A stretch of 64,000 bases of DNA from a virus (lineage: Duplodnaviria; Caudoviricetes). The notes beneath the pieces are model-generated. The model ran no database searches, was not told the origin of the DNA, and saw nothing but the letters and a program-made list of their open reading frames with translations. Each line of letters starts with the position of its first letter. The stretch's first letter is position 1. The stretch is taken from IMG/VR virus record IMGVR_UViG_3300003320_000853; one strand, given 5' to 3'. Of the stretch, positions 2-63,794 are shown in pieces. Position numbers and translations under genes: made by a program.

Positions 2-211
2 ACAGCCTCGGAAGAGCCGAACCTCACCGACTACTGGAACGACGTCGACAAGAGCGGAAAGAGCGCGCCACCGGAACCGAAGATTCTCTCGGCTGGCGAG
101 ATGCTCGACCGAATCTACCGGAGCATCTCTGCGTTCTGGGCGATCGACCCGCCATGGTCGGGGGATAAGTTGGAGCGCTACCAGAGCGTTCTCAACCTGC
201 ACACGACCTAG
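2..211 (+). CDS. Hypothetical protein, 3' part (runs off window start)
   Basis: Open frame from position 2 (TASEEPNLTDYWND...LHTT*) ending TAG 209-211, abutting the convergent gene 208-960. Confidence 0.55.
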   Translation, partial: TASEEPNLTDYWNDVDKSGKSAPPEPKILSAGEMLDRIYRSISAFWAIDPPWSGDKLERYQSVLNLHTT

Positions 212-960
212 AAGGGATCCTCATTGAGGAGACGCTCCCAGGCCGTGGGGTAGAAGATGTGTGCCTTCTTCGGGGGCGGTCCTTGCCCCTGCGCATACTT
301 CGCGAGACCGGCCAGGATCTCACGATTCTCTTGCTCCTGAATCTGCCGCGCTGCTTGAGCTGGAGAAATCCCCAGAGACGGCCGGCGGGTCCGGATGTCA
401 TCCATCCGGACCATGGGGTTCGCCTCCAGGGGGAGTTCGGGGGCGTGCACGTAAGAGGGCTCGAACTGGAGCGCCTGCTCCCCACATGGATTTCGCGGGG
501 GATTGAACCCTTCGATGGAGACCCGATCCATCTCCTGGAAGAGTTGCTCTTCTTGCTGCCGTTGGAATCTGCGGACAGCGTTCTCGTTGAAGTGCCACTG
601 CCCCGGGAGCTCCTGCATCTGCCATCCGTGCCCCTGCACGTTGGGTCCCACCTGTGCCCCCATAGAGGTCTCCGACGGGTACGAGAGGCCAATCCCCATA
701 TAGGTTTGGCGGATCATGTGCTCGGTATCTTCCTGAGCATTGAGGATGCCATCCACAACGGAACGACCGACCGTTCCGGGTCGGAGATCGAGTTCGAGGC
801 CCGCAGCCCTGGCGTGTTGCTGGAGAAGTCGGAGCGTTTCTGCGTTCGGGGAAGGGAGCGGTACGACGTCTCGCCACCAGGGGTGTTCCCTGATGGGTCG
901 ACCGTGGGGGTCGACGAGATGATCGTGGCGCGGGCCGTGAACGGTTCGGACAGGGGGCAT
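208..960 (-). CDS. Hypothetical protein with C-terminal TAW-x-x-LL tag (YPTAWERLLNEDPF*)
   Basis: 250 aa ORF; class B motif GGTGTA 15 nt upstream of ATG; carries the recurrent C-terminal tag. Confidence 0.8.
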   Translation of the reverse strand: MPPVRTVHGPRHDHLVDPHGRPIREHPWWRDVVPLPSPNAETLRLLQQHARAAGLELDLRPGTVGRSVVDGILNAQEDTEHMIRQTYMGIGLSYPSETSMGAQVGPNVQGHGWQMQELPGQWHFNENAVRRFQRQQEEQLFQEMDRVSIEGFNPPRNPCGEQALQFEPSYVHAPELPLEANPMVRMDDIRTRRPSLGISPAQAARQIQEQENREILAGLAKYAQGQGPPPKKAHIFYPTAWERLLNEDPF

Positions 961-1021
961 GGGGGGTTCTACACCATGGGCGGAGAATAGGCTTCCGCAA
1001 CCCTCAAAATTGTCCTCGCCC

Positions 1022-1038
1022 GGTGTAGATGCCGGGCC
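1022..1038 (+). promoter_or_regulatory. Class B promoter-like motif (GGTGTA-N11-ATG)
   Basis: cGGTGTAgatgccgggccATG; same motif recurs about 30 times at near-fixed distance from start codons. Confidence 0.7.
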
Positions 1039-3327
1039 ATGAACCCTTTCACGAATCCTGCGCCTCGCGATGGAGTGGCCATCGAGATGGACCCCGGGAA
1101 GTTCTACGCCCTCGTCGACATGATCGAGAAGGTCAGTACGACAGGGCGCCCCGTGGCTCTCGACGCTTTCGCCTCAAGGCTCGACGCCGCCGCGAAGGAG
1201 ATCGACGACGAGGTCGAATCTCTCGCCAAGGCCAACAGAGCCATGCTCGCGGAGATCCGGCAGACGACTCGTCGCCGCAATCCTCTGCTCCCACCCGACG
1301 AAGGTGACGACCCCTTCGAGGATCTCCGCCATACGTCTGGGGGGCAGAACTTCCTCCGCGTCATCTTCGACGTGATGCGGGGCATCCAGCACGGCTTCCG
1401 CCAGATGAAGCTCCTGACTCGGGAGTGCCGTCCTGGCGCCCTCGTTCTCATCGGCCAGAGGGTCAGGACGATCCGCTCAATGGAAGACCTCCAGGTGCTC
1501 AACACGGAGGTCTCTCTGAACAAGGCGACCGTCACACGCTTCGTGAACGGACTCCTGACGGTCGACCGCGCCCGCGAGGAGGTCGTGATGCTGGGTCGTC
1601 TGCTCGCCGAGCGGCTCGACGACTACTACCAGGTGCTGCTCAACCGGCACAGCGTGCAGGGCATCGAGATCCACAACGATCCCGTCGTGACCGACATCGC
1701 GATGTCGATCTTCGAGAACGTCGACGCTCACGGCGAGGTCGCCGAAGACGGCAAGAATCCGGACGAGCTGAGCGCATACTCGATGCGCAAGGCGAAGATC
1801 ATGGCCGAGGCCGTCCGCCACGGCATGATCGACGATTTCGTGAAGAACCCAGACAAGCTCATCTCGTACCTGACGAGGCACCTCCAGGCGATCTGGGATC
1901 TCACGGAGTTGCTCGACGATATGTACCGCGAGCAGATCAGGGATCTCCGTGCCATCCTCGGCATCACCGACGAGACCCGGGGCCTGTCGATGTCGAAGGC
2001 GTCCTTTTTCGAGGCGATCGAGATGCTTCGTGACCTCGACCCGAGAACGATCGTCTTCAAGGAGAAGACGGGTCTCCTGACGCCGGAAGAGCGCTACGAG
2101 TTGCGCTTCCGGAACGCCACGCTCGCGACCATCGTCTCCATGCTCCGGGGTGAGAACACTTCGGACGAGCTGATCCAGTTCATCCTCGACCGCAAGGCGG
2201 AGTGGCGCCGCTACCTCACCGAGGAGAACTCGTTCTACGTCTGCAAGGTCTCCGCGGGCAACCCCTTCCTCGGCGAGGCGCCGGGCGAGCTGAAGGTCGT
2301 CCCGGGGACGAGGCCCAACGTCCGCCTGGACGAGATCCTCGGTTCCGGGTTCGACCAGGTGCGGGCGCACTTCGCGACCATCGAAGCGTCCGCCACGTTC
2401 CACGATCTCTTCGTGGCGACCTCCCCTTCGAAGTCCGGGGACAAGAACCATGTGCTCCTCGTCGGACCGCAGGGGTGCGGCAAGAGCGAGGTCTTCCGCG
2501 CCGTGGGCGGAGACAAGAAATCGGCCGGCATCTTCGCCGTGGGTTCGGACTTCCTGACGTGCTGGAAGGGGGAAGCCGAGAAGAACCCGAAGAGGCTTTT
2601 CGAGGCTGCCATCAAGATCCAGCGGGAAGGTGGCAAGCACGTCCACATCATGATCGACGAGATCGACACGATCCTGAACAAGGACACGGGTCGGGACTCG
2701 TTCGGCGCGACCAACCTGACGACCGAGTTCCAGAACCTCATGGACGGCGTCGTCCACTACCCGCACATCTCCGTGTGGGGTGCGACCAACCATCCGGACC
2801 GGATGCCGATGCCCTGCATCCGGCGCTTCTCCAAGGTGCTCATCGTCGGCGAGCTGACGCAGGCCGATCGCGTGCTGCTCCTCAAGAACTTCGCCAGCCA
2901 CATGACCATGGATCCCATCGGCGATCATCTGTGGGATGCACTCGCGAAGAAGCTCGTCGGGGCGACGGGCGACGTCATCCGCAAGGTCGTCGACCACGTG
3001 TGGCGCACCAAGATGACCACCTTCACCGAAGTCAAGCCGGCCGAGGCGAAGAAGCTGATCGAGGAGCTCTCCAACGGTACGAAGTTCTCGATCGCCGAGT
3101 TCACGGCCGAGAAGCGCGCCGCCCTCCACGAGAAGCTCCGGGAGCACAAGGAGGCCGTTCTCACGGGTGAGGATCTCGCCCACTCGATCGACGAACACCT
3201 CGACAACGTCGCGATCCACAACGAGATCAAGACCGCCGTCGAGACCTACGACCGGGCTCGGGCCTTCCTCTCCGCGATCCAGGCCAAGCGCCTCCAGAAT
3301 GGGGCCTCGCTCACCGCCGAAGCGTAG
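1039..3327 (+). CDS. AAA+ ATPase with long helical N-terminal region
   Basis: Walker A GPQGCGKS, Walker B IMIDEID, sensor/SRH WGATNHP...CIRRF. Confidence 0.9.
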   Translation: MNPFTNPAPRDGVAIEMDPGKFYALVDMIEKVSTTGRPVALDAFASRLDAAAKEIDDEVESLAKANRAMLAEIRQTTRRRNPLLPPDEGDDPFEDLRHTSGGQNFLRVIFDVMRGIQHGFRQMKLLTRECRPGALVLIGQRVRTIRSMEDLQVLNTEVSLNKATVTRFVNGLLTVDRAREEVVMLGRLLAERLDDYYQVLLNRHSVQGIEIHNDPVVTDIAMSIFENVDAHGEVAEDGKNPDELSAYSMRKAKIMAEAVRHGMIDDFVKNPDKLISYLTRHLQAIWDLTELLDDMYREQIRDLRAILGITDETRGLSMSKASFFEAIEMLRDLDPRTIVFKEKTGLLTPEERYELRFRNATLATIVSMLRGENTSDELIQFILDRKAEWRRYLTEENSFYVCKVSAGNPFLGEAPGELKVVPGTRPNVRLDEILGSGFDQVRAHFATIEASATFHDLFVATSPSKSGDKNHVLLVGPQGCGKSEVFRAVGGDKKSAGIFAVGSDFLTCWKGEAEKNPKRLFEAAIKIQREGGKHVHIMIDEIDTILNKDTGRDSFGATNLTTEFQNLMDGVVHYPHISVWGATNHPDRMPMPCIRRFSKVLIVGELTQADRVLLLKNFASHMTMDPIGDHLWDALAKKLVGATGDVIRKVVDHVWRTKMTTFTEVKPAEAKKLIEELSNGTKFSIAEFTAEKRAALHEKLREHKEAVLTGEDLAHSIDEHLDNVAIHNEIKTAVETYDRARAFLSAIQAKRLQNGASLTAEA

Positions 3328-3668: not shown

Positions 3669-4898
3669 TCAGCCCTCTTTCGCGCACGCTGCCGCCATGG
3701 CGGTCAGCTCGGCGGAATCGAGCTTGATGCTCTTGGTCTCGCCGTTCTTGGCGCGGATCTCCGAGGAGGAGAGGTCGAGCCGGAAGTCGACGGGGATGAA
3801 AAGGCTCGTCCGGCCGAGCACATCGGCCATGTGGTTGCTCATCACCCGCCCGCAGACCAAGAACTCGGTCCCGACGAGGCGACCGGGCACGAGGAAACGG
3901 GTGCCGATGCTGGCGAACTCGTCGAGCATCGGCCGGATCTCGAAGCCCCACTTCGGGTCGAGCATCCGGTCCATCGCGTCGGCGCCCATCACGAAGTGAG
4001 CGCCGGGGAACTTGCGCGCCTTCTCCAAGAAGCGGGGGTCGCCCTCGGTCACGATGAAGTTGTGGCCCTTCATGAGCTTCGCCCGCTGGAGGCACTCGGC
4101 CGTCGAGAGAGCCGGTTTGTGGGGCGGGTTCACCGTCGTCGAGAAAACCAGCGTCCGGTGCTCCTTCTCGACGGCCAGCGTCTCCAACGAGGCCGCGCCG
4201 CTCTGGAAGTGCCCCTCGTGCGGCGGGTTGTACGCGCCGGGGTAGAAGAGGGTCTTCTTCGGGTCGATGGCCGTGAGCGGGCCGCGGGTGCCGTCCGCCT
4301 TGAAGAACGGATGGGCCATGAGCCGATCGTGCGCGAGGCTGTCGACGCAGCGAAGCTCGACTTTGCATCCCTCGAAGGTGGGAGCTTCGCTCTCGACGCG
4401 GGCGCTGAGGTACCAGGCGATGAGCTCGGACGCGATCTTGTCGGACAGCATGCCGTCGAGCTTGCGCTGGATCTCTCCTTCGCCCTTGGGGATCACAGTG
4501 GAGATCACCCAGCACCCTTCATCGGAGAAGATGGACGCGATCACCCGGTGATCGCCGTGCTTGTGGGCGACCTTGCTCGCGACGGAGCACGTCATCCCGA
4601 AGCCGATGGCCCGGCGGCCAGGCTTCCAGGCGCGCATGTAGGCTGTCATGGCGAGGTCGACCGCCGTGTTGACGCTCACGTACTCCGGCCGCCCGCGGGG
4701 AGAGAGGTCGGGCGTGAAGCCGAGCAGGTTGCTCGTCTCCTCCATCGCGTAGGGCATGGCTGCCCCTACGAAGAAGTTGCTCACGCCGGGGACCTCCCAG
4801 ATGAGCTTCTGGAGGCCGGCGCCGGCCCCTGTGCAGATGGCGAAGAAGAGGGGCGCGGTGTCGCCCTGGTCACGGAGATGCTCGAAAGGGTTGGTCAT
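3669..4898 (-). CDS. CinA/PncC-like domain fused to a nicotinamide/nicotinate-nucleotide adenylyltransferase-like (HxGH) domain
   Basis: N-terminal TGAGAG...VPGVSNFF...PYA...VSVNTAVDLA resembles the CinA C-terminal fold; C-terminal YPGAYNPPHEGH, MGAD and DLSSSEIR are NadD-type motifs. Confidence 0.8.
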   Translation of the reverse strand: MTNPFEHLRDQGDTAPLFFAICTGAGAGLQKLIWEVPGVSNFFVGAAMPYAMEETSNLLGFTPDLSPRGRPEYVSVNTAVDLAMTAYMRAWKPGRRAIGFGMTCSVASKVAHKHGDHRVIASIFSDEGCWVISTVIPKGEGEIQRKLDGMLSDKIASELIAWYLSARVESEAPTFEGCKVELRCVDSLAHDRLMAHPFFKADGTRGPLTAIDPKKTLFYPGAYNPPHEGHFQSGAASLETLAVEKEHRTLVFSTTVNPPHKPALSTAECLQRAKLMKGHNFIVTEGDPRFLEKARKFPGAHFVMGADAMDRMLDPKWGFEIRPMLDEFASIGTRFLVPGRLVGTEFLVCGRVMSNHMADVLGRTSLFIPVDFRLDLSSSEIRAKNGETKSIKLDSAELTAMAAACAKEG

Positions 4899-6703: not shown

Positions 6704-7678
6704 TCAGCCCCATCCCTTGGTCGAGGGACCGGGCCGGTAGGCTTCGTGGAAGAGACGCTGGTCGAGTGTGTGGAGGTAGTCTCCACGGTGTACGCCGGCC
6801 CGCCACCGTTCGGGGATGCCCTCCCGGCCGTAGAACGTGCCTGCCAGCGCCCCGGTGATGGCCGCCGTGGTGTCCGCGTCCCCAGCGCCCCGAACGGCCG
6901 CCATCACGGCCTCCTCGAAGCTCTTGGTGAAGAGGAAGCAGGCGAACGCGGCGGGCACCGTCTGGAGGACATGGCCCTTCGTGCCGATGCGCTTGAGGGT
7001 GGCCTGGAGATCGGTCGTGGGAGATTCGAGCAAGCTCTTGAGAAGATCCTTGATCTTGCTCTCCCGGAGATGATCGGCGATGGAGAGCATCATGGCGCTC
7101 GGCAACGCATCGAGGACACAGTCCTTCCCGTACGTCATCCGCATGTAGACCAGGAACGCGCTGGCACCCGCGACCGCTGCCGAGCCCTCTTCGGCTTCGA
7201 GCGAACGGTGCGTGAGAGTCGCCTCCTCCCGAGCGATGTCCATGGCCGCCTCGATGTCGCGCCAGAAGAAGACCCCGATCGGAGCACACCGCATGGCGGC
7301 TCCGTTCCCCTCAGAGCCGAGGATCCCGCAGTTTGCGGCGAGGCTGCCCTCGCCGTAGTTCGCCATCGCCTTCTTGATGGTGCCCCCCACGAGACCCTTC
7401 GGCACCGTCTCGTACCAGTTGAAGTAGTGCCGCATGACGTTGTCGGCGGTGAACGCACGCCTCTCCAGGAGGGCCCTGGAGAGGGCCACGCCCATCCCCG
7501 TGTCGTCCGTCCACTCGCCGGCCTGGAACGCGCCGTAGGCCCCGTGCGTGTCGCGGAATTCGCCCGTCCAGTCGGCAAGTCCCGGCGGGGGCTCCGTCGC
7601 CGAGCTGGGCTGCTCGAAGGGTGCCCCGAGCGCGTCTCCGATCCCCATCCCGAGCATCGTCGCAGGTTCGTAGCTCAT
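6704..7678 (-). CDS. ADP-ribosylglycohydrolase (DraG/ARH family)
   Basis: GDALG, WTDDT, GNGAAMR, THRS, GDADTTAAITGALAG motifs. Confidence 0.93.
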   Translation of the reverse strand: MSYEPATMLGMGIGDALGAPFEQPSSATEPPPGLADWTGEFRDTHGAYGAFQAGEWTDDTGMGVALSRALLERRAFTADNVMRHYFNWYETVPKGLVGGTIKKAMANYGEGSLAANCGILGSEGNGAAMRCAPIGVFFWRDIEAAMDIAREEATLTHRSLEAEEGSAAVAGASAFLVYMRMTYGKDCVLDALPSAMMLSIADHLRESKIKDLLKSLLESPTTDLQATLKRIGTKGHVLQTVPAAFACFLFTKSFEEAVMAAVRGAGDADTTAAITGALAGTFYGREGIPERWRAGVHRGDYLHTLDQRLFHEAYRPGPSTKGWG

Positions 7679-8058
7679 ATCTCATCCTCCCGAAGGATCA
7701 CATCCCATGCCGTTGGCTGGCGAAGCTTCGCGGTCTCCTTTCTCCGCCGAGCCTTCTCGTGCTTGCGGAGGTTGGCCACGCGTTCGTTGTCGAGAGCGAC
7801 CTTGAGGGCCTCCCGCTGAACCTCAAGGTTCGCGACCAGCTCTTCGGGCGCGACCTCTTGGGGATCGACGAAGACCAAGGGGCTCGGCGGCGTCCAGCCG
7901 TGCGGCTTGCGGATCACGCGGGTCAAGACCCGATAGTGCTCGGCGACCTCGATGCTCTTGCGAATCGCGTACGACTCGTGGTGCGAGACGTAGCCTGCAT
8001 GGTCGATCCAACCCCGGCGGCGATCCCAGGATTGTGGACAGTAGTACCTAGCGGCCAC
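7675..8058 (-). CDS. Hypothetical protein with C-terminal tag (QPTAWDVILREDEI*)
   Basis: GTG start 16 nt after class B motif; tag at C-terminus. Confidence 0.75.
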   Translation of the reverse strand: MAARYYCPQSWDRRRGWIDHAGYVSHHESYAIRKSIEVAEHYRVLTRVIRKPHGWTPPSPLVFVDPQEVAPEELVANLEVQREALKVALDNERVANLRKHEKARRRKETAKLRQPTAWDVILREDEI

Positions 8059-11475: not shown

Positions 11476-12132
11476 CTAACCCTTGAGCTTCCGTAGGTAC
11501 TCGGCGTATGGGGCGTCCTCAGCAGCCTTGTAGGCCCGCGCCTCGGCATCCTCCTTGCGAGCATGCTCCCTGGCGAGGCGCGCGGTCATCTCCTCCAACT
11601 CCGGGGCCAGGGTCTCCAACTTCTCCCACCAAGGTCCATCGCGCCAACCCTCATTCGAGCGGCATCCGTTGCCCCTCCAGATGAGGATCCGGGTGTTTGG
11701 CACAGGATCCCAACCATAGGAGATACGGCTGGTATAGTAGGTGTCGAACCCCAGGAAGGAATCCTGCCTCACAGGGAAGCCCGGGATCCCGATGTCGATC
11801 TGGGTGATGCCGTCGTATTTCCTGACCCCAAGGTGGAATTCTCCCCACTCCCAGAAAGCCTCGTCGCAGCCCTTGCGGTTCTCGACCCGGTTCATGAGCG
11901 CATGCCATCCCCGGGAGTACCACGTGTTGCGCTCATCCCCTCCCTGAATAATCAGGCGACCGACGAGCTTCTTGTATTTGTCAGGAAAAGGTACGTGTGC
12001 AGGGCGTCCACCTTCGTGCCATGCCTTCCCCATATCATGCCAGAGAGGCAGAGATCCTTCGGTCGGAGGCGGGGGTAGGCTATCGTCGAAGGGGTCGTCG
12101 GCGAGGAGGTGGTCGTAAGATGTCGGCCGCAT
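11476..12132 (-). CDS. Hypothetical protein with the tag at its N-terminus (MRPTSYDHLLADDPF)
   Basis: Start coupled to the stop of the upstream gene; tag variant followed by a Pro linker. Confidence 0.7.
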   Translation of the reverse strand: MRPTSYDHLLADDPFDDSLPPPPTEGSLPLWHDMGKAWHEGGRPAHVPFPDKYKKLVGRLIIQGGDERNTWYSRGWHALMNRVENRKGCDEAFWEWGEFHLGVRKYDGITQIDIGIPGFPVRQDSFLGFDTYYTSRISYGWDPVPNTRILIWRGNGCRSNEGWRDGPWWEKLETLAPELEEMTARLAREHARKEDAEARAYKAAEDAPYAEYLRKLKG

Positions 12133-13231: not shown

Positions 13232-13537
13232 CTACACCGGATCGTCGTCGAGGACAACGTCGTGCCACGTGCGCTCGTTGATTGGCCTTGCAGGGGGATT
13301 GCATGTGGGATGCCACGTCGCGATTGTCTCGAAAGTCTCCCGGCGGGCGGGGGCCTCTTCGAGGAGCTGGAGGTCGAAGAGGTCGAAGAGAGGCTGGACG
13401 AGCACCAGGCGGCGCCCGACGTGGATCGCGGTCACCATGTAGGTGACGCCGGAGTTGCGCAGGCAGAGGCCCTTGGACAGGACGACGATCCTATCCTCCG
13501 ACCAGGGCCAAGCGGGAAGGCCATGCCGTTCCATCAC
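13232..13537 (-). CDS. Hypothetical protein with C-terminal tag variant (ERTWHDVVLDDDPV*)
   Basis: Coupled to the upstream gene; stop inside class B motif. Confidence 0.65.
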   Translation of the reverse strand: MMERHGLPAWPWSEDRIVVLSKGLCLRNSGVTYMVTAIHVGRRLVLVQPLFDLFDLQLLEEAPARRETFETIATWHPTCNPPARPINERTWHDVVLDDDPV

Positions 13538-15296: not shown

Positions 15297-15875
15297 ATGT
15301 CATACAGAGCAATCAGAACTGTCACACGCGGCCTCCTGCGCGAAGTTGAAGGTGAATACAAGGATCGCATCCTTGTCGATGAGCACCCTTGGGGTGCGGA
15401 GGACATGTTCACTGTTTCGGTCCTCAAGGAGGGTCAGGTCGCCGCCGCGCTCATCCTCCGTGCTGTTCTGTTCTCTGCGGAGGAAGCCGCAGGGCTCGAC
15501 ATCGAATCTATCAACATGTCAAGCCTGGCCCGTCGGATCCTTCGCCGCTTTGGCGCTGCAACGACGCAGGGGGCATTCGTGGGCATCCAGGAGTCCGAAG
15601 TCAGCCGCTTCCTCTTCGAGAGGCTGGGGTCCCATCTGGGTCCCACAGCGACCGAGAGGGCTCGCCAACGGGAAGCGTCGGATCTCGTGGCTCGGACGCG
15701 GGCGACCCGGCCGAGGGTAATACCCCAGGTGATCCCGGCGGAGAGCGGATTCGATCTCGTACTGCATGGGCTCACCGCGAACGACGTGCTGAGGGCCGTC
15801 GAAGCGCTGCCCGAGGCGAAGCCGCCCAGCTCGTCGCGAACGGCATACGAGCATCTCCTCGCCGACGAGCTGTAA
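15297..15875 (+). CDS. Hypothetical protein with C-terminal tag (SRTAYEHLLADEL*)
   Basis: Class B motif upstream; tag at C-terminus. Confidence 0.75.
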   Translation: MSYRAIRTVTRGLLREVEGEYKDRILVDEHPWGAEDMFTVSVLKEGQVAAALILRAVLFSAEEAAGLDIESINMSSLARRILRRFGAATTQGAFVGIQESEVSRFLFERLGSHLGPTATERARQREASDLVARTRATRPRVIPQVIPAESGFDLVLHGLTANDVLRAVEALPEAKPPSSSRTAYEHLLADEL

Positions 15876-31217: not shown

Positions 31218-31583
31218 GTGGCGAAGACCTTCAACTCCCGGCGCGAGGTGCTCCGGTACGCGAAGAAGCACCCCGAGAAAGTCGAGGGTATGCTTCGCGC
31301 TGCGGTCAAGAGGGCCTTCTGGTTCGACGCGGCCGTAGATCGGTTCCTCAATTCGACTCCGGAGACTCAACAACGATTTCTGGGCGAGTATGCCCGGGCC
31401 GAGTACAGGATCATCACAGAGAGCCAGATCGACATGATCCACTGGTGGCTCGCAGCCCAAGCGGCGGCGCCCACCGTGGCCGCGAACCGTGCGCGGAGGG
31501 CTCAGGAAAAGGCCCTTGATGAACATTCGAGAATGCCCACAGCCTGGGCGCATCTACTCCGGAGAGACCCGTGGAGCTCTTGA
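31218..31583 (+). CDS. Hypothetical protein with C-terminal tag (MPTAWAHLLRRDPWSS*)
   Basis: Tag near C-terminus. Confidence 0.7.
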   Translation: MAKTFNSRREVLRYAKKHPEKVEGMLRAAVKRAFWFDAAVDRFLNSTPETQQRFLGEYARAEYRIITESQIDMIHWWLAAQAAAPTVAANRARRAQEKALDEHSRMPTAWAHLLRRDPWSS

Positions 31584-35199: not shown

Positions 35200-35433
35200 C
35201 TAGGAGTTCTGGGTATTGAGCTTCGCGAGCTGCGTCGTGAGCTCATCGTACTCGTTGACGGCCGCGTTCGTCTTGCCTTCAGCGAAACATTTGCCACAGC
35301 GACGCCCGTAGGACTCCCGCGACGTCTTGACTCCGAAGGGGTTCCTACAGACCCAACAGCGGCCCGGCGGATGAGCCTTCCAGAGCTGGCTGAGACGCTT
35401 CTGGACTCTCTGCTTCTCCTTCGCCGTGCTCAC
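35200..35433 (-). CDS. Small Zn-finger protein
   Basis: CWVC...CGKC. Confidence 0.6.
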   Translation of the reverse strand: MSTAKEKQRVQKRLSQLWKAHPPGRCWVCRNPFGVKTSRESYGRRCGKCFAEGKTNAAVNEYDELTTQLAKLNTQNS

Positions 35434-35684
35434 AGGCTTTCCTCCTCATCGAGGCGCTCCCAGGCCGTCGGAGCCGTCGAGGGAGGGGGCGGGAACGTGA
35501 GACGCCACATGGACAGGTCGGTCTCCAGGAAGATTCGCGTACTCTTCCGGATGCACACCTCGGGATCCCCATCGTAGAAGCTCGGGAAGCCCGTATGTTC
35601 CCACAGGATGTGCTCGGCGAAGTCCTTCGGAAGGGCAATGAAGAGCTGACGGGCTTCGTCCTGGACGATCTCGACGCCCGTCAC
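35430..35684 (-). CDS. Hypothetical protein with C-terminal tag (APTAWERLDEEESL*)
   Basis: GTGA overlap with the CYTH gene; ILWEHTGFPSF; tag after a Pro linker. Confidence 0.7.
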   Translation of the reverse strand: MTGVEIVQDEARQLFIALPKDFAEHILWEHTGFPSFYDGDPEVCIRKSTRIFLETDLSMWRLTFPPPPSTAPTAWERLDEEESL

Positions 35685-36606: not shown

Positions 36607-37191
36607 ATGAAACTCGCTCGGCACTATCAGACCGTTACGGAAAAGGCCCTCGATGCGAAGAAGGCCAGAGACAAGGAAGCCGCCATGGCTCAGCTCAGAG
36701 AGCTGGAGCCCCAGGTCGAGGGAGCTGCAAACGACGGCAAGTTCACCTTCTCCACCACCGAGCGTCTGCTCCCCTTGACCGTCGCCATGCTCATCGAGCT
36801 GGGATACGCAACCAAGGAGCGCCAGGACAACGGCAACTTCCCGGACGCCTCCCGCCCGATCTGGGACATCTCTTGGGGCGAGTTCGCTCGCCCTGTCTCC
36901 ACGGAGCGCAGGGACAGGGTCTTCGTGGTCATCGGCAAGACGGGCCAGTACGAGGACACCACCGAATGGTACGTCTGCGCCTTTGGGACGCACGAGGACG
37001 CCCTGGATCTCAGCAATCGGCTCAATGCGTGGTGCCGGGATCACGGGTGCGATGCACGCCCCTACGTCGGCGTGCCGACCGACCATCCCCCCGAGGACCC
37101 CGCCTTCCGTTGCATTGACACGGGCGTCCAGTACCACATCCACGAGATCCCCCTCTATCTCTCAGGAAAAGGTATGTCCATCCCGACATGA
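36607..37191 (+). CDS. Two-domain hypothetical protein; C-terminal domain paralogous to 53746-54021
   Basis: Class A promoter at 36573; visible alignment to the paralogue. Confidence 0.75.
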   Translation: MKLARHYQTVTEKALDAKKARDKEAAMAQLRELEPQVEGAANDGKFTFSTTERLLPLTVAMLIELGYATKERQDNGNFPDASRPIWDISWGEFARPVSTERRDRVFVVIGKTGQYEDTTEWYVCAFGTHEDALDLSNRLNAWCRDHGCDARPYVGVPTDHPPEDPAFRCIDTGVQYHIHEIPLYLSGKGMSIPT

Positions 37192-37583
37192 CCCTTCGCT
37201 TCGTGAACCTGCTCGCTTGGTGGCGGCGCAAGGTGGCCGTCGAGAGCTTTTCCACGCCCAAGCTCTCGGACGGAACCCTGATCACGATCGACGAAGGGGA
37301 CGGCACGGAGCCCCAAATGCTCGCTCTCACCCGGAACAACCTGTGCTCCATGGCGTGGGTCATCCGCGAGGCCGATCGGCGGGGCTTGAAAAACGTCTCG
37401 CTCACCCTCGAAGTGCCCGAGGGGCCCGACGTCTGGTCTCAGACGCTCACGGTACCCAACTGGGCCAAGAGGAAGCTCTTCCGCGAGGTCATCGCACGGG
37501 CCCTCGCGCTCGGCTGGAAGGGCGAAGTCTACCACCCTTCTCCCACGGCATGGGATCAGCTTTTGAGGGATGAGGGTCTCTAG
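37188..37583 (+). CDS. Hypothetical protein with C-terminal tag (SPTAWDQLLRDEGL*)
   Basis: ATGA overlap; tag. Confidence 0.75.
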   Translation: MTLRFVNLLAWWRRKVAVESFSTPKLSDGTLITIDEGDGTEPQMLALTRNNLCSMAWVIREADRRGLKNVSLTLEVPEGPDVWSQTLTVPNWAKRKLFREVIARALALGWKGEVYHPSPTAWDQLLRDEGL

Positions 37584-43447: not shown

Positions 43448-43488
43448 CACAAGGTTGATCGCAGCCTGCCGCGGGTTGTAAGAACGGC

Positions 43489-43977: not shown

Positions 43978-43987
43978 GGATCACACC

Positions 43988-50355: not shown

Positions 50356-50718
50356 ATGAACCCCGAGCGTGAAGCGATGGATGCCGAGTTCGGCGCTTTC
50401 GAGAACGAGTTCCAGGCGGCGTTTGCCCTCTCCCAGATGGAGGCGCCCGCGGACGACCGTGCGGAGATCGAGCGGGCGGTGAAGGCGGGCCGCTTCGTGG
50501 TGGTGGCTTCGACGCCCCGCTACTGCGCCCTGACGGACGCCCTCATGGGCGAGTTTCTCACCCTTCTCTCGGAGCACTCGACGTTCGAGGAGGCCGAGGC
50601 GGCCATGGTCAACGCCCTGGACGAGGGGGACGTGTGGTACACGGTGCGCGGGCCGAAGGCGGCGCCGGCCACCGTGGTGCCGTCGGGCGACGAGGACGAG
50701 GACAACATCCCGTTTTGA
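50356..50718 (+). CDS. Acidic protein ending in an SSB-tail-like motif (DEDEDNIPF*)
   Basis: Class A promoter at 50321; C-terminus resembles SSB DFDDDIPF. Confidence 0.75.
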   Translation: MNPEREAMDAEFGAFENEFQAAFALSQMEAPADDRAEIERAVKAGRFVVVASTPRYCALTDALMGEFLTLLSEHSTFEEAEAAMVNALDEGDVWYTVRGPKAAPATVVPSGDEDEDNIPF

Positions 50719-51233
50719 TGGGCCTGGCGATGAAGGTCATCACGTACATCTCCCCGGGCGATTTCACCGCCGAGGACACGCTCGTCTGGGACGTCGTTCG
50801 TCGGGAAGCTCGTCGCCTTGGGCTTCCTGACGAGCTCTACATCGTCAACACGGGCCGCCGGAACCCGGCGGCTCTCAACCGTATCTGCGCCGTGCTGGAG
50901 GTGACTGTCGGAGTGCACGGGTTCCAGGTTGTCGGGCCACGACACCCATTGTTCCAGGCACTCCACTTCGACAGGCAGCTCCGGATCGGGCGGATGACCG
51001 TCCGGGATGATGGGATCGTCCAGGTGCGGCCCCGTGTCTGGTCGAGCATCAACGCCGATTTCCGGGACGATCAGGACAACCTCGACGACGAAGCCATGTT
51101 CCCTGGGATCAAAGAGTTCAAGCTCACGGCGCGGCAGATGTCCGACCTCGGGATGGACGAGGTCGAGGAGGAGCCGGCGCCATCGGTGCGGCCCACGGCG
51201 TGGTCGCGTCTCTTGGAAGACGATGCGTTGTGA
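50718..51233 (+). CDS. Hypothetical protein with C-terminal tag (RPTAWSRLLEDDAL*)
   Basis: TGATG overlap; tag. Confidence 0.75.
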   Translation: MGLAMKVITYISPGDFTAEDTLVWDVVRREARRLGLPDELYIVNTGRRNPAALNRICAVLEVTVGVHGFQVVGPRHPLFQALHFDRQLRIGRMTVRDDGIVQVRPRVWSSINADFRDDQDNLDDEAMFPGIKEFKLTARQMSDLGMDEVEEEPAPSVRPTAWSRLLEDDAL

Positions 51234-51562
51234 CCGATCGGGAGCCGACCTACACTGTAGTTTTCTTACCGCATGATGGTCGGCAGCCCTGGCGTCGGGA
51301 CAACCTGACGTTGGAGCGGGCGGCCTACTTCTGCGGGCGGGATGCGGTAGAGGCGCTCTTGGTCGTGCGGAACCAGGAGCCGACGGACGGCCGCGAGTGG
51401 CCTTGGTGGCCGCTCTTGAGGCGTCTCGGTTTGATCCCGCTGGCGATCCACCCGCGCATCGTGGGGCACGTCTCTCTTCGTGGTGTCGTGGTGATCGGGT
51501 ACATTCCGCCATTGCTGGCTCCTACCTCGTGGGAGCATTTGCTGGGGGAGTCACAGCTATGA
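51230..51562 (+). CDS. Hypothetical protein with C-terminal tag (APTSWEHLLGESQL*)
   Basis: GTGA overlap; tag. Confidence 0.7.
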   Translation: MTDREPTYTVVFLPHDGRQPWRRDNLTLERAAYFCGRDAVEALLVVRNQEPTDGREWPWWPLLRRLGLIPLAIHPRIVGHVSLRGVVVIGYIPPLLAPTSWEHLLGESQL

Positions 51563-51789
51563 ACTACACGGCAATTTTTCACGGGACCCGAAGGGTATCT
51601 CGGGTCGAGGTGGCGTCGATCCCTGACGTCCAGACGAAGCTCATGCGGCTGAACGAGGCGGCCAAGGCGCCGTTCTACGCTGAGCTGTACTCGGGAGACA
51701 AGCTCGTGGCGCGGGTCTATCCGAAGAGTGTTGCGTGGGTCGAGCGACCGGACGCGTGGGCGCATCTTTTGGCCGACGACGGGCTCTAG
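51559..51789 (+). CDS. Hypothetical protein with C-terminal tag (RPDAWAHLLADDGL*)
   Basis: ATGA overlap; tag. Confidence 0.75.
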   Translation: MNYTAIFHGTRRVSRVEVASIPDVQTKLMRLNEAAKAPFYAELYSGDKLVARVYPKSVAWVERPDAWAHLLADDGL

Positions 51790-52106: not shown

Positions 52107-52427
52107 ATGCTTGGCAGGCCTCTCGCGGAGATCCGATACATCGTGGTCTTCGTCCCGGTCGAGGCCGGCGAGCAGGTTCCTGCGGGTACATGGTTTGATG
52201 AAGGGCTCTCGATCTCCGAGATCGACCGCATCTGCAAGTCTACGCCGGCCCGGGCTTCGCTCTTCCAGATGGAGGACGTCGCTCGGGTCAAGCGTCTCGC
52301 CATCATCCCCCATGGGGGGATCGGACCAGGCGAGGTCTACCAGCTTCAGTGGGCGGAACAGGAGCGATTCAAGCGGGAGAGTAGGGACACAGGGTGGGCC
52401 CAACTTCTTCGAGACGAATTTGGGTGA
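52107..52427 (+). CDS. Hypothetical protein with C-terminal tag (RDTGWAQLLRDEFG*)
   Basis: Operonic; tag variant. Confidence 0.7.
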   Translation: MLGRPLAEIRYIVVFVPVEAGEQVPAGTWFDEGLSISEIDRICKSTPARASLFQMEDVARVKRLAIIPHGGIGPGEVYQLQWAEQERFKRESRDTGWAQLLRDEFG

Positions 52428-58607: not shown

Positions 58608-59138
58608 ATGGACAGCACGCTGTTCAACGAGTTCGCCGAGAAGCCTCCTGTGGTCTTCAAGATCGAAAAGGTCCCCTCCAATTGGGAGCCACGTCCGTTG
58701 CACCAGATGATGGAGAAGCCCGATCGCCGTGGCCCCCATGGCGTGTGCAACTGCTGTGGGACGAAGATCCCGCAGCTCTCTTTCGAGGAAGCCTTCGAGA
58801 AAGCCAAGGCCGAGAGGGACGACAAGGGCGCCATGAAGCATATGAACGCCATGGCGCACGGCTACGAGGAGTGCGACCTCTGCGCTGGTGACCATCCGGG
58901 AACCCCTGGTGTCCCGGAGCCGAAGCTCGGCGAGGAGTGGGAGAGCGGATCGGGTGAACGCGTCCGCGTGATCCAGGAGTACGGCGGTAGGTACAAATCC
59001 GGCCCATACGGCGGATGGGCGATGGGCATCACCTCGGATGGGCGCCAGCTCGGGATTCGCCGTGGGAATGTCGAGAATGGTCGCTGGCGGCCCTTCTCGG
59101 GCCCGGCGTCGACGGTCAACGCAGTTCTTGGCCTGTAG
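58608..59138 (+). CDS. Hypothetical protein (CxCC / CxxC)
   Basis: GGAGG site; operonic. Confidence 0.7.
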   Translation: MDSTLFNEFAEKPPVVFKIEKVPSNWEPRPLHQMMEKPDRRGPHGVCNCCGTKIPQLSFEEAFEKAKAERDDKGAMKHMNAMAHGYEECDLCAGDHPGTPGVPEPKLGEEWESGSGERVRVIQEYGGRYKSGPYGGWAMGITSDGRQLGIRRGNVENGRWRPFSGPASTVNAVLGL

Positions 59139-59147: not shown

Positions 59148-60113
59148 ATGATGCAGCTCTCGATTTTCAGTGGCACGGCGAATAGGCCGCTTGCCGAGCG
59201 GGTGTGTGAGGCGCTCGACGGGGTTCCCCTTGGAAGGGCCCTCGTGTCTCGGTTCTCCAATGGGGAACCCCGTGTTCAGATCGAGGAGAGCGTCCGCGAA
59301 CGGGACGTGTACATCATCCAGCCGACTTGCGCCGGCTTGGACGGATCCTCGGTGAACGACAACTTCATGCAGCTCCTTGTCATGGTCGACGCTCTCGACC
59401 GGGCTGGCGCCGGTCGCATCACGGCGGTCGTCCCCTCCTTCGGCTATGCCAGGCAGGACAGGCGCGCCGAAACGAGGACGCCGATCACGGCCAAGCTCGC
59501 CGCCGACGCCATGGCCATGGCCGGCGTGAAGCGGGTCGTGACGATCGATCTCCACGCGGAGCAGATCGAAGGCATGTTCCCCCGCGGCGTCCACGTCGAG
59601 AACATCTACGCCAGCCACGCGATGGAGGGGTACCTCCGGCGCGAGTACGAAGGCGTCATGTGTGTCTCTCCGGACGCCGGGGGCGCCAAGCGGAATCGGG
59701 CCTACGCCAAGCTCCTCAACTCGCGGACGGCGATGATCGACAAGCGCCGTGATGAGCCCGGCAAGGTCGGCGGTGCAGAGGTCGTCGGCGACGTCGACAG
59801 CAAGCGGTGCCTCATCACCGACGACATGATCGACTCGGCCGGCACCCTCGTGGCCGCGGGCCACTCCCTCATGAAGGCTGGCGCCGTGAGTGTCGACGCC
59901 GTCGCCACTCACCCGGTCTTCTCGGGGAACGCCGTAGAGAACATCGCCACCTCGCCGTTCGGCCGCATCATCGTGGCCGACACGATCCCCATCTCCGACG
60001 CGATGATGGCGACGGGCAAGATCCACATCGTGAGCGTCGGCGGCATCCTTGCCGATGCCATCCGTCGGCTTCATAACGGGGACACCCTCCACCCCTACCT
60101 CCGCCGGTCATGA
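59148..60113 (+). CDS. prs: Ribose-phosphate pyrophosphokinase (PRPP synthetase)
   Basis: FSNGE, ESVR, YARQDR, DLHAEQI, SPDAGG, IDKRR, DDMIDSAGT, THPVFSG. Confidence 0.95.
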   Translation: MMQLSIFSGTANRPLAERVCEALDGVPLGRALVSRFSNGEPRVQIEESVRERDVYIIQPTCAGLDGSSVNDNFMQLLVMVDALDRAGAGRITAVVPSFGYARQDRRAETRTPITAKLAADAMAMAGVKRVVTIDLHAEQIEGMFPRGVHVENIYASHAMEGYLRREYEGVMCVSPDAGGAKRNRAYAKLLNSRTAMIDKRRDEPGKVGGAEVVGDVDSKRCLITDDMIDSAGTLVAAGHSLMKAGAVSVDAVATHPVFSGNAVENIATSPFGRIIVADTIPISDAMMATGKIHIVSVGGILADAIRRLHNGDTLHPYLRRS

Positions 60114-60319: not shown

Positions 60320-60705
60320 GCGATCCCGAGACGAACGACCTCCCCGAGTATTGGGATAACCTCCTGCCTGGGATCGACATCCCCCGTCTGTCGGAGGACA
60401 AGCTCCGGGAGTTCGTGCTCGGCGTCCTCGATGGGCGGATCTACATCGACCGCCAGGTGGGCAACCCCGAGGACGTCGGGCATGTATTCTTCCCGCTCCT
60501 CTTCGGCGCGTTCTCGGGCTACAACGAGGACAGCCTGAAGAGCTACGTCGGCTGCATCTACGAGTACATGGACCAGGCGCTCCCCCGCAGCATCAACGGG
60601 AGGCCGTGCTTCGCGTCGATGCGGATCCTCCACACGGAGGACTGGAAGCGGGCCCATGCCGCCATCGTCGCCGAGCAAGAGCGTCGCAAGAACATCCCGA
60701 TCTAG
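60316..60705 (+). CDS. Hypothetical protein
   Basis: GTGA overlap; IYEY...PRSINGRPCF. Confidence 0.7.
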   Translation: MSDPETNDLPEYWDNLLPGIDIPRLSEDKLREFVLGVLDGRIYIDRQVGNPEDVGHVFFPLLFGAFSGYNEDSLKSYVGCIYEYMDQALPRSINGRPCFASMRILHTEDWKRAHAAIVAEQERRKNIPI

Positions 60706-62177
60706 AGCTCATCGTCCATCAGGTGCTCGAACGCGGTGCGCCGGACGACCTTCCTCCAGATCCCCGAGGCGAAGTCTCTGAGCGGGATGGAGCGTCGCCG
60801 CTTCACCTTCCGATCCACGACGTGGACGATCTCCCTCGCGACGTCGACGGTGACGACTTCGATTTCGGTCTTGTCGGTCAGGTGCTCCCATTCATCCCCG
60901 GACACGGGCAAGACTTCCGGGACAGAAGGCGCGTCACCTTCCACGATCGACCATGCGCGATGGAGATTCATGAAATCCGCGTAGAGCATCGTGTTCCGCT
61001 GTTCGGGAATGCCATCGTCCGTGGCCGACGCCCGACGGAAGGTGACCGCTTCGCCCCCGTAGGACGTCGACGGACGGCCCGTGACCTCGACGAGATCCCC
61101 CGTCGCCCGGTTCACCCAGAGCGAGCGGGCCGTGGGGATGCCCAACGCTTCCCCGTCGACCTCGGGCGGCTCCGGCACCGGCACGGAGGGCGCCACAGGA
61201 GGGTTCCGGGGGAAGCTCGGCGGGTTCGAGGTGTACACGACGCCTGAGCGAACCGGGAGGATGTCTCCGTTGAGGTTGCGCCGTCCAAGCTCGACCTCTT
61301 CGCGGAGAGCCTCCTGCGGACCCCGGACGAGTTCGAGGAGAGCGTTGTGCGTCGAGGGTGCTGGACGGCCCGGGGCGCCCCCCAGACGGGAGACAGGGGA
61401 AGTCGAGACGCGGCCCACATCGCGAGATTGGATCGCGATCGAGTGAAGACTTTCGGGGCCTGTCACCACGTGAATCGGGACGCCTTGAAAGGCGCGAGCT
61501 CCGAGAGGCCCGCCGATGACCTCTCGCTCGTGGGTGCGATAGAAATGACCCCAGACCTGTGGGGTGACGTCGATCCTACGGATGGGGATCAGGTTCGCCT
61601 CCATGTAGGTGCGCAGCTCGATCATGGTGTCCCAGAACCATTCGTCCGTGTGGGTTCCGGGGGGCTCGGCCACCGTTCCCCACTGGTAGCTGCACTTCGA
61701 GCAGCTCCACACGTGGAACGTTCCGTTCCGGGTCACGTTCGACGTTGCTCGGTCGTCGCATGCGGGGCAGCCGTCGTTGACGATGGGCTGCGGAACCTCG
61801 GCCGCCCCCGGGTGCTCGCTCATGTCGAGCGTCGCCGAGGTCCCGATGGGCATGTGGCGGGGGCAAACCCATTCCGGGGTCGCGTCGCGATCCATCCGGA
61901 AGACTCCCGCCAGCCGGCAGCCTCGACGAGAACACCCCATTCCGTGGGTCGGCGCGGCTTGAACAAACCTCCACAAATCAATGCGGTTCGCGGGAACACG
62001 GGTTCGGTTGCCCGTCATGCTGACGAGGGTGATGACGTTGGGCGCAAGCTCGGCGACGACAGCCCGAGCGGTACGCCCGGTGAAAGGGTCGGTCGTTTCC
62101 CACAGCTCGCAGACTTGCGGATCTCCGCTAGGCACCGTGAACCTCCACCATGATCCCCCGAACAGAGTTTCCTCCAT
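60702..62177 (-). CDS. Multidomain protein (Zn-ribbons, repeated small beta domains) with C-terminal tag (RRTAFEHLMDDEL*)
   Basis: Long ORF; the true start may be 62214 if indels are present. Confidence 0.75.
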   Translation of the reverse strand: MEETLFGGSWWRFTVPSGDPQVCELWETTDPFTGRTARAVVAELAPNVITLVSMTGNRTRVPANRIDLWRFVQAAPTHGMGCSRRGCRLAGVFRMDRDATPEWVCPRHMPIGTSATLDMSEHPGAAEVPQPIVNDGCPACDDRATSNVTRNGTFHVWSCSKCSYQWGTVAEPPGTHTDEWFWDTMIELRTYMEANLIPIRRIDVTPQVWGHFYRTHEREVIGGPLGARAFQGVPIHVVTGPESLHSIAIQSRDVGRVSTSPVSRLGGAPGRPAPSTHNALLELVRGPQEALREEVELGRRNLNGDILPVRSGVVYTSNPPSFPRNPPVAPSVPVPEPPEVDGEALGIPTARSLWVNRATGDLVEVTGRPSTSYGGEAVTFRRASATDDGIPEQRNTMLYADFMNLHRAWSIVEGDAPSVPEVLPVSGDEWEHLTDKTEIEVVTVDVAREIVHVVDRKVKRRRSIPLRDFASGIWRKVVRRTAFEHLMDDEL

Positions 62178-62600: not shown

Positions 62601-62966
62601 GTGCCGCGACGCCTTCCCCTCATCTGCCCCTCGAATTCGAGGGGCGTCGCCGACTTCCACACGAAGCCTTGCAACGGCAAGGCGTGCTCATGGTGGAAGA
62701 AAGGCGAGAACCTCTGTGGCGCCATCGCCACGCTCGACGACTACGCTCGGTGGGAGAAGCCAGAGACTCCGCTACCTCACTGCCCCATCACGGCTTCCTG
62801 CACGTGGGACGTCCAGGAGATCGCTCAGGGCCGGCGCGGATGCGTCCCGCGCCGGCTGGGCCTCGTCTGTGAGCATCAGGCGGGAGAGCCCGGCGTGGAC
62901 CTCGACACCGCCATTTGGAACACCTTCGAGATGGCGGACCCGGACGATGCCGAAGCCTGGGGATAG
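62601..62966 (+). CDS. Cys-rich hypothetical protein
   Basis: GTG 34 nt from TTGATC 62567. Confidence 0.7.
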   Translation: MPRRLPLICPSNSRGVADFHTKPCNGKACSWWKKGENLCGAIATLDDYARWEKPETPLPHCPITASCTWDVQEIAQGRRGCVPRRLGLVCEHQAGEPGVDLDTAIWNTFEMADPDDAEAWG

Positions 62967-63201
62967 CTGGTTCATCTTCAAGAAGCTCGTCTTGCTCCAC
63001 ATCGAGGAACACCCGGGCGTGCGATCCGGTGATCTGATCGAGGCGTTCAACGCCGACGACAACTTGATCATGGAGTGTCTGGACGTTCTGCTCTCTCAGG
63101 GATCGATCAACTGGATCGAGGAACCGCGGATGACCTGGCGGTACTACGCCAGCCGGAGGCCGACCGCTTGGGAGGTTCTTCTCCAGGATGACGTGGTGTA
63201 G
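62947..63201 (+). CDS. Winged-helix-like protein with C-terminal tag (RPTAWEVLLQDDVV*)
   Basis: HPGVRSGDLIEAF...CLDVLLSQGSI; tag. Confidence 0.7.
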   Translation: MPKPGDSWFIFKKLVLLHIEEHPGVRSGDLIEAFNADDNLIMECLDVLLSQGSINWIEEPRMTWRYYASRRPTAWEVLLQDDVV

Positions 63202-63213
63202 GCTCCCGAGACG

Positions 63214-63483
63214 ATGCCGAAAAGGGTGACCATCCGAGATGCTGTGCTTCGCTACGTGAGATTCAACTCGGGACGCACTGCGACGGAGATCGCCAAGGAT
63301 ATCGGGAGGAACGTCGGTTCCGTCTCTTCGGTACTCAACCATCTCCGGGAGGAAGGCGAGGTCGAGTACGCACCGAAACGCGGACCCCGGGGCGGCTACA
63401 CCTACCGCATCCCGGCGGCCAAGCTCGCCCCGACATCCAACAAGACCTCGTGGGCTCATCTTCTCGACGAGGACGACCTCTGA
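63214..63483 (+). CDS. Winged-helix HTH protein with C-terminal tag (KTSWAHLLDEDDL*)
   Basis: TATEIAKDIGRNVGSVSSVLNHLREEGEV; tag. Confidence 0.8.
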   Translation: MPKRVTIRDAVLRYVRFNSGRTATEIAKDIGRNVGSVSSVLNHLREEGEVEYAPKRGPRGGYTYRIPAAKLAPTSNKTSWAHLLDEDDL

Positions 63484-63794
63484 TGCCTCCTCCCATCTAC
63501 AAGCCGACCATGCAGATCGTGGACTACGCCTACCTCCTCAGCCCGAGGAGGCGTTCGGTGGACGAGGCCGAGCTGGCCCGTCTCCGAGACGTCGTCCTAC
63601 GTCTTCGGATGGCGAAGAACGCGGGTGGCGAGCGGTACGACACTGCGCTCAAGAACCGCGATGCGCCCGCCCCGCTCGTCAAGATTCTGCCCGAGGGCCG
63701 CAAGCACTACATTTCCTGCCTTACCGATGAGGCTGTGCAGCGCTTGTTGCGGCCCACGGCGTGGGAGCACCTCCTCCAGGATGAGGGCCTCTGA
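63483..63794 (+). CDS. Hypothetical protein with C-terminal tag (RPTAWEHLLQDEGL*)
   Basis: TGATG overlap; tag. Confidence 0.75.
   Translation: MPPPIYKPTMQIVDYAYLLSPRRRSVDEAELARLRDVVLRLRMAKNAGGERYDTALKNRDAPAPLVKILPEGRKHYISCLTDEAVQRLLRPTAWEHLLQDEGL

Follow-up and report, generated by a model that had tools for sequence, protein, structure and literature searches.

Sixteen unrelated small proteins encoded in a 64,000-nucleotide stretch of an uncultured huge phage (the whole stretch analysed, hereafter the window) carry the same short acidic helix at a terminus. This tag is shared by a whole clade of 310-530 kb phages, it travels with a gene module encoding a phage ClpX unfoldase, and, by inference, it probably addresses these proteins to one common reader.

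The tag, its carriers and its conservation

The initial annotation proposed that at least 15 unrelated proteins end in a common peptide, PTAWExLLxDDxL, conserved at the peptide level. This observation was confirmed and extended, given that all 15 C-terminal copies are real and a sixteenth, N-terminal copy was found. Two points were corrected: the likely start of the first gene is 756 rather than 960, and one carrier is a winged-helix DNA-binding protein. The carriers are as follows.

208..756 (-): carrier 1; tag PTAWERLLNEDPF (211-249); the orthologue in relatives G002 and G003 keeps the tag (8 of 11 positions) while the body is 35% identical
7675..8058 (-): carrier 2; tag PTAWDVILREDEI (7678-7716); no Pfam family
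11476..12132 (-): carrier 3; N-terminal copy MRPTSYDHLLADDPF (about 12088-12132; 28.5 bits) followed by a Pro-rich linker; the ATG lies 2 nt after the upstream stop; absent from the initial annotation
13232..13537 (-): carrier 4; tag RTWHDVVLDDDPV (W-shifted dialect)
15297..15875 (+): carrier 5; tag RTAYEHLLADEL; also has an internal RRILRRF
31218..31583 (+): carrier 6; tag PTAWAHLLRRDPWSS
35430..35684 (-): carrier 7; tag PTAWERLDEEESL
37188..37583 (+): carrier 8; tag PTAWDQLLRDEGL
50718..51233 (+): carrier 9; tag PTAWSRLLEDDAL
51230..51562 (+): carrier 10; tag PTSWEHLLGESQL; coding-type GC pattern
51559..51789 (+): carrier 11; tag PDAWAHLLADDGL (Asp replaces Thr at the helix N-cap position)
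52107..52427 (+): carrier 12; tag DTGWAQLLRDEFG
60702..62177 (-): carrier 13 (Cys-rich, about 400-490 aa); tag RTAFEHLMDDEL; the orthologue in relative G001 is 29% identical and ends RRTAFEALEDDDFG
62947..63201 (+): carrier 14; tag PTAWEVLLQDDVV
63214..63483 (+): carrier 15, a winged-helix DNA-binding protein (HrcA_DNA-bdg, 4e-5; MarR-like PHROG); tag KTSWAHLLDEDDL
63483..63794 (+): carrier 16; tag PTAWEHLLQDEGL (best match, 36 bits)

Each of the 15 C-terminal motifs ends 12-15 residues before a stop. An 11-column matrix built from them yielded 16 hits of 21.9 bits or more among 106,197 six-frame positions, and nothing between 10 and 21.9 bits. Given this matrix is circular within the window, it was applied to untrained DNA: three related IMG/VR contigs (638 kb) presented 38 hits of 12 bits or more, against 2.7 expected from residue shuffles. 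All 38 lie 11-19 residues from a stop, where only about 16% of positions lie.

Conservation is at the peptide level. Pairwise identity is 0.72 and 0.69 at codon positions 1 and 2 and 0.34 at position 3, and identical residues use different codons in 366 of 592 comparisons. With the tag removed, the 16 carriers show no significant similarity (best E of 0.04), and all have a coding-type GC1>GC2<GC3 pattern. Pfam and PHROGs returned nothing for most carriers, the ESM Atlas was uninformative, and a blastn search of the window against cultured phages found no match. Literature searches found no description of the motif.

The tag is gained and lost between orthologues: for example, window gene 58608-59138 is untagged while its G001 orthologue, 42897-43313, is tagged. 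Across the clade the tag occurs in lineage-specific dialects (PTAW, PTWQ, TAYDRLL, PTPLDRIL), which suggests co-evolution with a reader.

The ancestral carrier and the ClpX module

The ancestral carrier is a 172-aa core protein represented by 203 cluster representatives, which nearly always end in the tag. A Pro/Lys/Arg-rich linker precedes the tag, usually with a basic residue just before it. In this family the last residue is D or E in 89 of 139 sequences, and the tail after the motif varies from 6 to 21 residues. Pfam and PHROGs gave nothing for this protein, and a tblastn search against cultured phages found no match. Its N-terminal barrel may be Tudor/SH3-like: the best fold matches are CarD, PcrA and UvrD Tudor domains at Z of 6.9-7.2 over about 50 residues, although this is a level common for the method, and Foldseek found nothing at E of 0.001 or better.

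The ancestral carrier gene lies 3.7-9 kb downstream of clpX in five lineages, and a Cys-rich PF03692 (CxxCxxCC, FliB-like) gene overlaps its stop in every lineage examined. The PF03692 match scores 27.6-37.6 bits in four lineages, against a gathering cut-off of 23, with eight invariant Cys. The phage ClpX of the relatives, encoded for example at 43245-44495 in G002, presents zf-C4_ClpX, AAA_2 and ClpB_D2-small domains and scores 364 bits to E. coli ClpX. The GYVG pore loop and the ClpP-docking [LMVI]GF loop are conserved in six sequences, yet the RKH substrate-recognition loop is replaced by variable sequences lacking RKH in all lineages. No phage ClpP was found.

The sister phage LR745208.1 shares 71 of 131 core genes and keeps the actin, sigma-like, clamp-loader, polymerase and virion genes, but it lacks ClpX, the ancestral carrier, its PF03692 partner and a 508-aa AAA+, and it has no tag. 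The same holds for the cultured phage Tunturi_5. However, the module is lost as a block, hence this profile cannot separate ClpX from about 60 other core proteins absent from the sister phage, and the linkage of clpX to the carrier lies inside a generally syntenic block.

Interpretation of the tag

The interpretation in the initial annotation, namely a short amphipathic helix with an acidic end that binds one common receptor, is partly supported. Its core, a common address label, is supported by position, peptide-level selection, modular gain and loss between orthologues, and clade-wide conservation with dialects. Of its candidates, a capsid-packaging signal is disfavoured, and both AAA+ ATPases of the window are poor receptors: the 750-aa Cdc48/Vps4-like one has no homologue in tag-bearing relatives, and the 423-aa one is not core. 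An unfoldase link remains the best lead, but through a phage ClpX encoded outside the window.

Our best reading, held tentatively (probability of roughly 0.35), is a short linear address tag: an N-capped amphipathic helix ([TSDN]-x-aromatic-[DE]-x-L-[LM]) followed by an acidic run, displayed on a flexible Pro/Lys/Arg linker at a protein terminus. In this view, dozens of unrelated accessory proteins would be recognised by one phage-encoded reader belonging to the module that is gained and lost together with the tag, most likely its ClpX. With host ClpP, this ClpX would unfold or degrade tagged proteins, so that the tag would act as a private tethering or degron signal controlling the lifetime of early and accessory proteins. 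The analysis establishes the tag, its terminal position, its selection, its clade distribution and its co-occurrence with the module, whereas binding to a single reader, the identity of that reader as ClpX, and instability or proteolysis of tagged proteins as the outcome are inferred. ClpX reads short motifs at both C- and N-termini, and its N-domain binds the C-terminal peptide of the adaptor SspB, which fits 15 C-terminal copies plus one N-terminal copy. On the other hand, acidic tails are poor pore substrates, and loss of the RKH loop removes positive charge. As a test of charge complementarity, the net charge of the ClpX zinc-binding domain gave a mixed result, being +1 to +3 in four lineages but -3 in relative G006.

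The alternatives are less likely. The reader may be another protein of the module: either the beta-domain body of the ancestral carrier, reading tags in competition with its own tail, or the translationally coupled PF03692 protein, which would use the tag as a docking site to modify a nearby Lys or Arg, making a writer-reader system rather than proteolysis. The AF2 model of the carrier (pLDDT 94.5) gives its own linker and tag pLDDT of 88 and 78, which suggests, from these confidence values alone, that the tail docks on the body. The Tudor/SH3-like barrel would belong to a peptide-binding fold class, although the matches are at noise level. FliB, which has a similar Cys motif, is a [4Fe-4S] protein-lysine methyltransferase (PMC8598068), the basic residue before the tag would suit such a modification, and both genes are absent from the tag-less sister phage; yet no SAM-binding evidence was obtained, and a modifying role rests on analogy with FliB. 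A complex prediction of the tail-less carrier body with the tagged C-terminus of an unrelated protein from the same genome, run without controls, scored 0.00, which is not evidence either way. Docking on a host hub, such as RNA polymerase or sigma, the replisome or SSB-interaction network, or a host protease, with dialects following different hosts, is considered about equally unlikely. Carriers lie in regions typical of early host-takeover genes, the chemistry combines an acidic run with a hydrophobic anchor, some copies end in DPF like SSB tips, and the barrel resembles RNAP-binding CarD and UvrD Tudor domains at Z of about 7. However, the complete absence of the tag from the sister phage fits a phage-encoded reader better, and a partial back-translated pattern scan of 185,579 bacterial and archaeal genomes returned only unrelated sites and no host protein family ending in the tag.

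A sorting signal for the capsid or a phage-built compartment is more doubtful still. Terminal peptides act in this way in T4 and in encapsulins, and the clade has an actin-like protein and a second, basic N-terminal tag. Nevertheless, no tag lies in the structural gene block of the relatives, tags being confined to the region of small mixed-strand genes; no tubulin was found; the actin is retained by the tag-less sister phage; and the window's SSB-like protein is untagged. A ParM/ParR-like pairing of the actin-like (Volactin) gene with a tagged downstream ORF was seen only in relative G003 and is not conserved, and a 93-95% identical protein considered as a possible hub turned out to be the major capsid protein. 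The nearest cultured relative of the capsid, a distant one, infects an acidobacterium. Least likely is an action of the nascent peptide in ribosome arrest or termination control. Although the position relative to the stop codon is fairly fixed, all three stop codons are used, the distance from the aromatic residue to the stop varies from 8 to 16 residues, the downstream sequence is not conserved, one copy is N-terminal, and tail length varies in the ancestral family.

A bolder reading, possible yet rather unlikely, is that this clade runs its own protein-addressing code. The acidic tag sits on roughly 5% of the called genes of a complete relative, and on a larger share in this window, and the basic N-terminal tag may belong to the same code. 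A module of RKH-less ClpX, a Tudor-like protein and a FliB-like Fe-S enzyme would then redirect host ClpP, or mark tagged proteins, so that the virus controls the lifetime or activity of its accessory proteome after translation. Shared terminal peptides read by one machine are how cells organise proteolysis, replication-hub traffic and cargo loading. A virus-private version, carried on dozens of otherwise uncharacterised proteins, would give the first functional handle on a large part of the dark proteome of huge phages, would show how a phage-encoded ClpX is re-specified, and could provide an orthogonal tag-and-reader pair for synthetic biology. The tag marks which hypothetical proteins belong to one regulatory class across at least 200 sequence clusters of uncultured phages.

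Comparison with known terminal-peptide systems

The MIM helices of ESCRT-III proteins, read by the MIT domain of the Vps4 AAA+ ATPase, are likewise C-terminal amphipathic helices on several substrates read by the N-domain of an AAA+ unfoldase. That system is eukaryotic and archaeal, however, no MIT domain was found here, and the window's Vps4/Cdc48-like AAA+ is not conserved in tag-bearing relatives. The T4 capsid targeting sequence and encapsulin cargo-loading peptides also address unrelated cargo through a short terminal peptide, yet they mark virion or compartment cargo encoded with structural genes, and the T4 sequence is N-terminal on virion internal proteins, whereas 15 of 16 copies here are C-terminal and the tag avoids the structural block.

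Clamp-binding peptides (bacterial QL[SD]LF; the terminal tails of T4 gp43, gp33 and gp55 that bind gp45; the PIP box) are terminal short motifs shared by many clients of one hub, including N-terminal cases such as Hda. Here there is no Gln-based consensus (QL[SD]LF or QxxLxF), no clamp gene (PF00712, PF02768) was found in the relatives, although a divergent clamp is not excluded, the clamp loader is retained by the tag-less sister phage, and most carriers are not replication proteins. The SSB C-terminal acidic tip (DDDIPF) is also an acidic run with a hydrophobic anchor at a free terminus after a flexible linker, and some copies of the tag end in DPF or DLF. An upstream amphipathic helix is nevertheless essential here, the window's SSB-like protein has its own separate DEDEDNIPF tail, and one SSB protein carries a tip that many partners read, a relation that is reversed here.

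ClpX degrons (ssrA LAA-type, MuA-type, N-motifs) are short motifs at either terminus, shared by unrelated proteins and read by one AAA+ machine. The present tag does not have the non-polar last three residues and fixed free carboxylate of ssrA-like degrons, since its last residues and distance to the free carboxylate are not conserved and its tail is strongly acidic, nor does it resemble the basic MuA-type, and the phage ClpX lacks the RKH loop that helps read ssrA. The E. coli SspB adaptor, whose C-terminal XB peptide docks on the ClpX zinc-binding N-domain, has the same layout as the ancestral carrier: a folded body of about 140 aa, a flexible linker and a short terminal peptide, which in the carrier, encoded near clpX, would tether proteins to an unfoldase. 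The carrier body shows no detected similarity to SspB, and XB is basic and hydrophobic (LRVVK) whereas this tag is acidic and helical. Moreover, dozens of proteins carry the peptide here, rather than one adaptor.

The terminal motif in the window and in independent DNA

The window has 62-66% G+C and presents no nucleotide match among cultured phages. A six-frame regular-expression scan recovered all 15 C-terminal motifs listed in the initial annotation, each 12-15 residues before a stop, and that observation therefore holds. A codon-usage gene caller placed 14 of them at the ends of called genes, and the other two ORFs also have coding-type GC1>GC2<GC3. An 11-column matrix built from the 15 tags yielded 16 hits of 21.9 bits or more among 106,197 six-frame positions, with nothing between 10 and 21.9 bits. 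The additional hit is an N-terminal copy, MRPTSYDHLLADDPF, which starts gene 11476-12132 (minus strand) 2 nt after the upstream stop and is followed by a Pro-rich linker, thus mirroring the C-terminal layout. The ORF at 27683-27901 (+) ends in HWNNILEDLDDETL, which may be a degenerate tag without the Thr N-cap and scores below the matrix threshold.

Given the window matrix is circular, it was applied to DNA on which it had not been trained. A back-translated pattern scan of IMG/VR found the tag at C-termini on three jumbo contigs (G001, G002 and G003), which were analyzed in full. The matrix yielded 38 hits of 12 bits or more, against 2.7 expected from shuffles, and all 38 lie 11-19 residues from a stop, where only about 16% of positions lie.

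Tag codons are 0.72 and 0.69 identical at positions 1 and 2, but 0.34 at position 3, and identical residues use different codons in 366 of 592 comparisons. The feature is therefore a peptide, not a DNA repeat. With the tag removed, the 16 carriers are unrelated (best E 0.04), and only one has a clear family, the winged-helix protein at 63214-63483.

G002 and G001 are contiguous at both ends and form a relative of about 362 kb. In that relative and in G003, tags occur only in the roughly 190 kb of small mixed-strand genes, and none occurs in the block of large co-directional structural and replication genes. Orthologues can differ in having the tag: window 58608-59138 is untagged, and G001 42897-43313 is tagged. 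Where both orthologues have it, the tag is far better conserved than the body (8 of 11 matrix positions against 35% overall for 208-756). Tagged genes use all three stop codons, the distance from the aromatic residue to the stop varies, and the downstream sequence is unrelated, which argues against a termination-level mechanism. At G003:243864-243949 and G002:126131-126213, two convergent tagged genes end on a shared CTAG, and their last ten or so codons form a near-perfect inverted repeat, which could be a bidirectional terminator hairpin or a trace of tag-mediated recombination.

A recurrent intergenic promoter-like element, (G)TTGATCGG-N13-14-TGTAGGA, is present in 13 copies, all on the + strand of the window, at 16880, 17358, 23900, 34590, 37584, 40974, 42913, 50101, 50321, 51790, 56342, 56984 and 58168. 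Several copies directly flank tagged genes and the SSB-like gene, which suggests one temporal class driven by a phage-specific sigma factor. Other genes observed in the window are as follows.

50356-50718 (+): small protein ending in DEDEDNIPF, a classic SSB-type acidic tip, directly upstream of three consecutive tagged genes; Pfam finds no SSB domain in it
1075-3327 (+): 750-aa protein with one Cdc48 D2/Vps4-like AAA+ domain (92 bits to Cdc48) and a 440-aa N-terminal region of no identified family, inserted in this phage only (the syntenic slot in G002 is 760 bp)
3669-4898 (-): cytidylyltransferase-like protein
6704-7678 (-): ADP-ribosylglycohydrolase (2e-61)
59244-60113 (+): ribose-phosphate pyrophosphokinase

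Together, the last three look like an NAD/ADP-ribose salvage set, possibly for counter-defence.

Lineage dialects and the ancestral carrier

Using the relatives' ClpX as a probe, five more huge-phage contigs (84-529 kb) were found. They carry the tag in lineage dialects, still enriched at C-termini; three of these contigs present the following forms.

G004: PT[PI]L[DE]RILxxD
G005: [TD]A[FY]DxLMDEDLF
G006: PTAW, PTLW and PSAW forms

Among 131 proteins shared by the three most complete tag-bearing genomes, one 172-aa protein carries the tag in every lineage, each time in that lineage's dialect. An exhaustive profile search found 203 representatives of this protein at 50% clustering. Of 139 full-length members, 121 end in [TSND]-x-[YFW]-[DS]-[RH]-[LI]-[LM]-x-[DE]-[DE] plus an acidic run, after a basic/Pro linker. 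Tail length after the motif varies from 6 to 21 residues, the free carboxylate is not at a fixed distance, and the last residue is usually D or E. The ancestral form is thus TxYDRLLxDD, PTAW being one dialect. Thr can be replaced by Asp, Ser or Asn, which fits a helix N-cap.

An AF2 model of this carrier, obtained with 135 sequences, presents a pLDDT of 94.5, with a predicted N-terminal Tudor/SH3-like barrel, a second beta domain and a helix. The tag itself is modelled as a helix, with pLDDT values of 88 and 78 for linker and tag, which suggests the tail docks on its own body. The best structural hits are the RNAP-binding Tudor domains of CarD, PcrA and UvrD, although at Z about 7, which is background level.

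A second, basic N-terminal tag, M...RV[AV]xR[FY]..A, is clade-wide on unrelated proteins, in G001-G006 and in the further contig G008 (for example G002:46335, 60980, 64596; G004:195762; G006:53206), and window 15297-15875 has an internal RRILRRF. Several of its carriers sit next to clpX, and its charge is complementary to that of the acidic tag.

The clpX module and its phylogenetic profile

The gene of the ancestral carrier lies 3.7-9 kb downstream of a phage clpX in five lineages. This ClpX has the C4 zinc finger, the GYVG loop and the [LMVI]GF ClpP-docking loop, yet its RKH loop is replaced by variable sequence in every lineage. No phage ClpP was found. A 202-213-aa gene starts at or across the stop codon of the carrier gene in every lineage examined, and encodes a PF03692 protein with eight invariant Cys. 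FliB, which its authors liken to PF03692, is a [4Fe-4S] protein-lysine methyltransferase (PMC8598068).

The capsid protein links the clade to the uncultured 485-kb phage LR745208.1 (82% identity) and, more distantly, to Tunturiibacter phage Tunturi_5 (48%) and Bacillus phage G (39%). The major capsid protein (G001:159130-160011 and orthologues) is 93-95% identical across genomes whose other core proteins are about 50% identical. LR745208.1 shares 71 of the 131 core proteins, including capsid, portal, actin-like protein, sigma-region-4 protein, clamp loader and PolA. The core actin-like protein belongs to the Volactin family (PF25216, 1.7e-75; G001:180326-181363 and orthologues, including that of LR745208.1), and no tubulin was found. 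In contrast, LR745208.1 lacks ClpX, the carrier, the PF03692 partner and the 508-aa AAA+. It has no tag at all, and neither does Tunturi_5. The basic N-terminal tag is also depleted in the tag-less sister phage LR745208.1 (0.4 against 1.3-3.9 per 100 kb). Hence, the tag tracks the module, and the actin, sigma-like, clamp-loader and polymerase proteins become unlikely readers, although sixty core proteins remain formally possible.

Candidate readers of the tag

The interpretation offered by the initial annotation, in which a short helix with an acidic end binds one common receptor, is partly supported. Terminal position on a linker, modular gain and loss, dialects and co-inheritance with one module point to a docking tag with a phage-encoded reader. 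The tag itself, its position, its selection at the peptide level, its distribution in the clade and its co-occurrence with the module are established by the sequence analysis, whereas binding to a single reader, the identity of that reader as ClpX and any resulting unfolding or degradation are inferred. Neither the motif nor this module was found described in the searchable literature.

ClpX-mediated unfolding or degradation is the preferred reading, yet a tentative one, with a probability of about 0.35. The profile cannot separate ClpX from its neighbours, and another reader from the same module, either the Tudor-like body of the carrier or the PF03692 enzyme, is possible though less likely. 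Docking on a host hub is considered about as doubtful as the latter, and readings based on sorting or on translation are less likely still.

In comparison with known systems, the tag's acidity does not match any known ClpX signal. However, ClpX is the only module protein whose family is known to read short motifs at both termini and to dock terminal peptides on its N-domain, and a ClpX that keeps ClpP docking but has changed its specificity loop invites a private substrate code.
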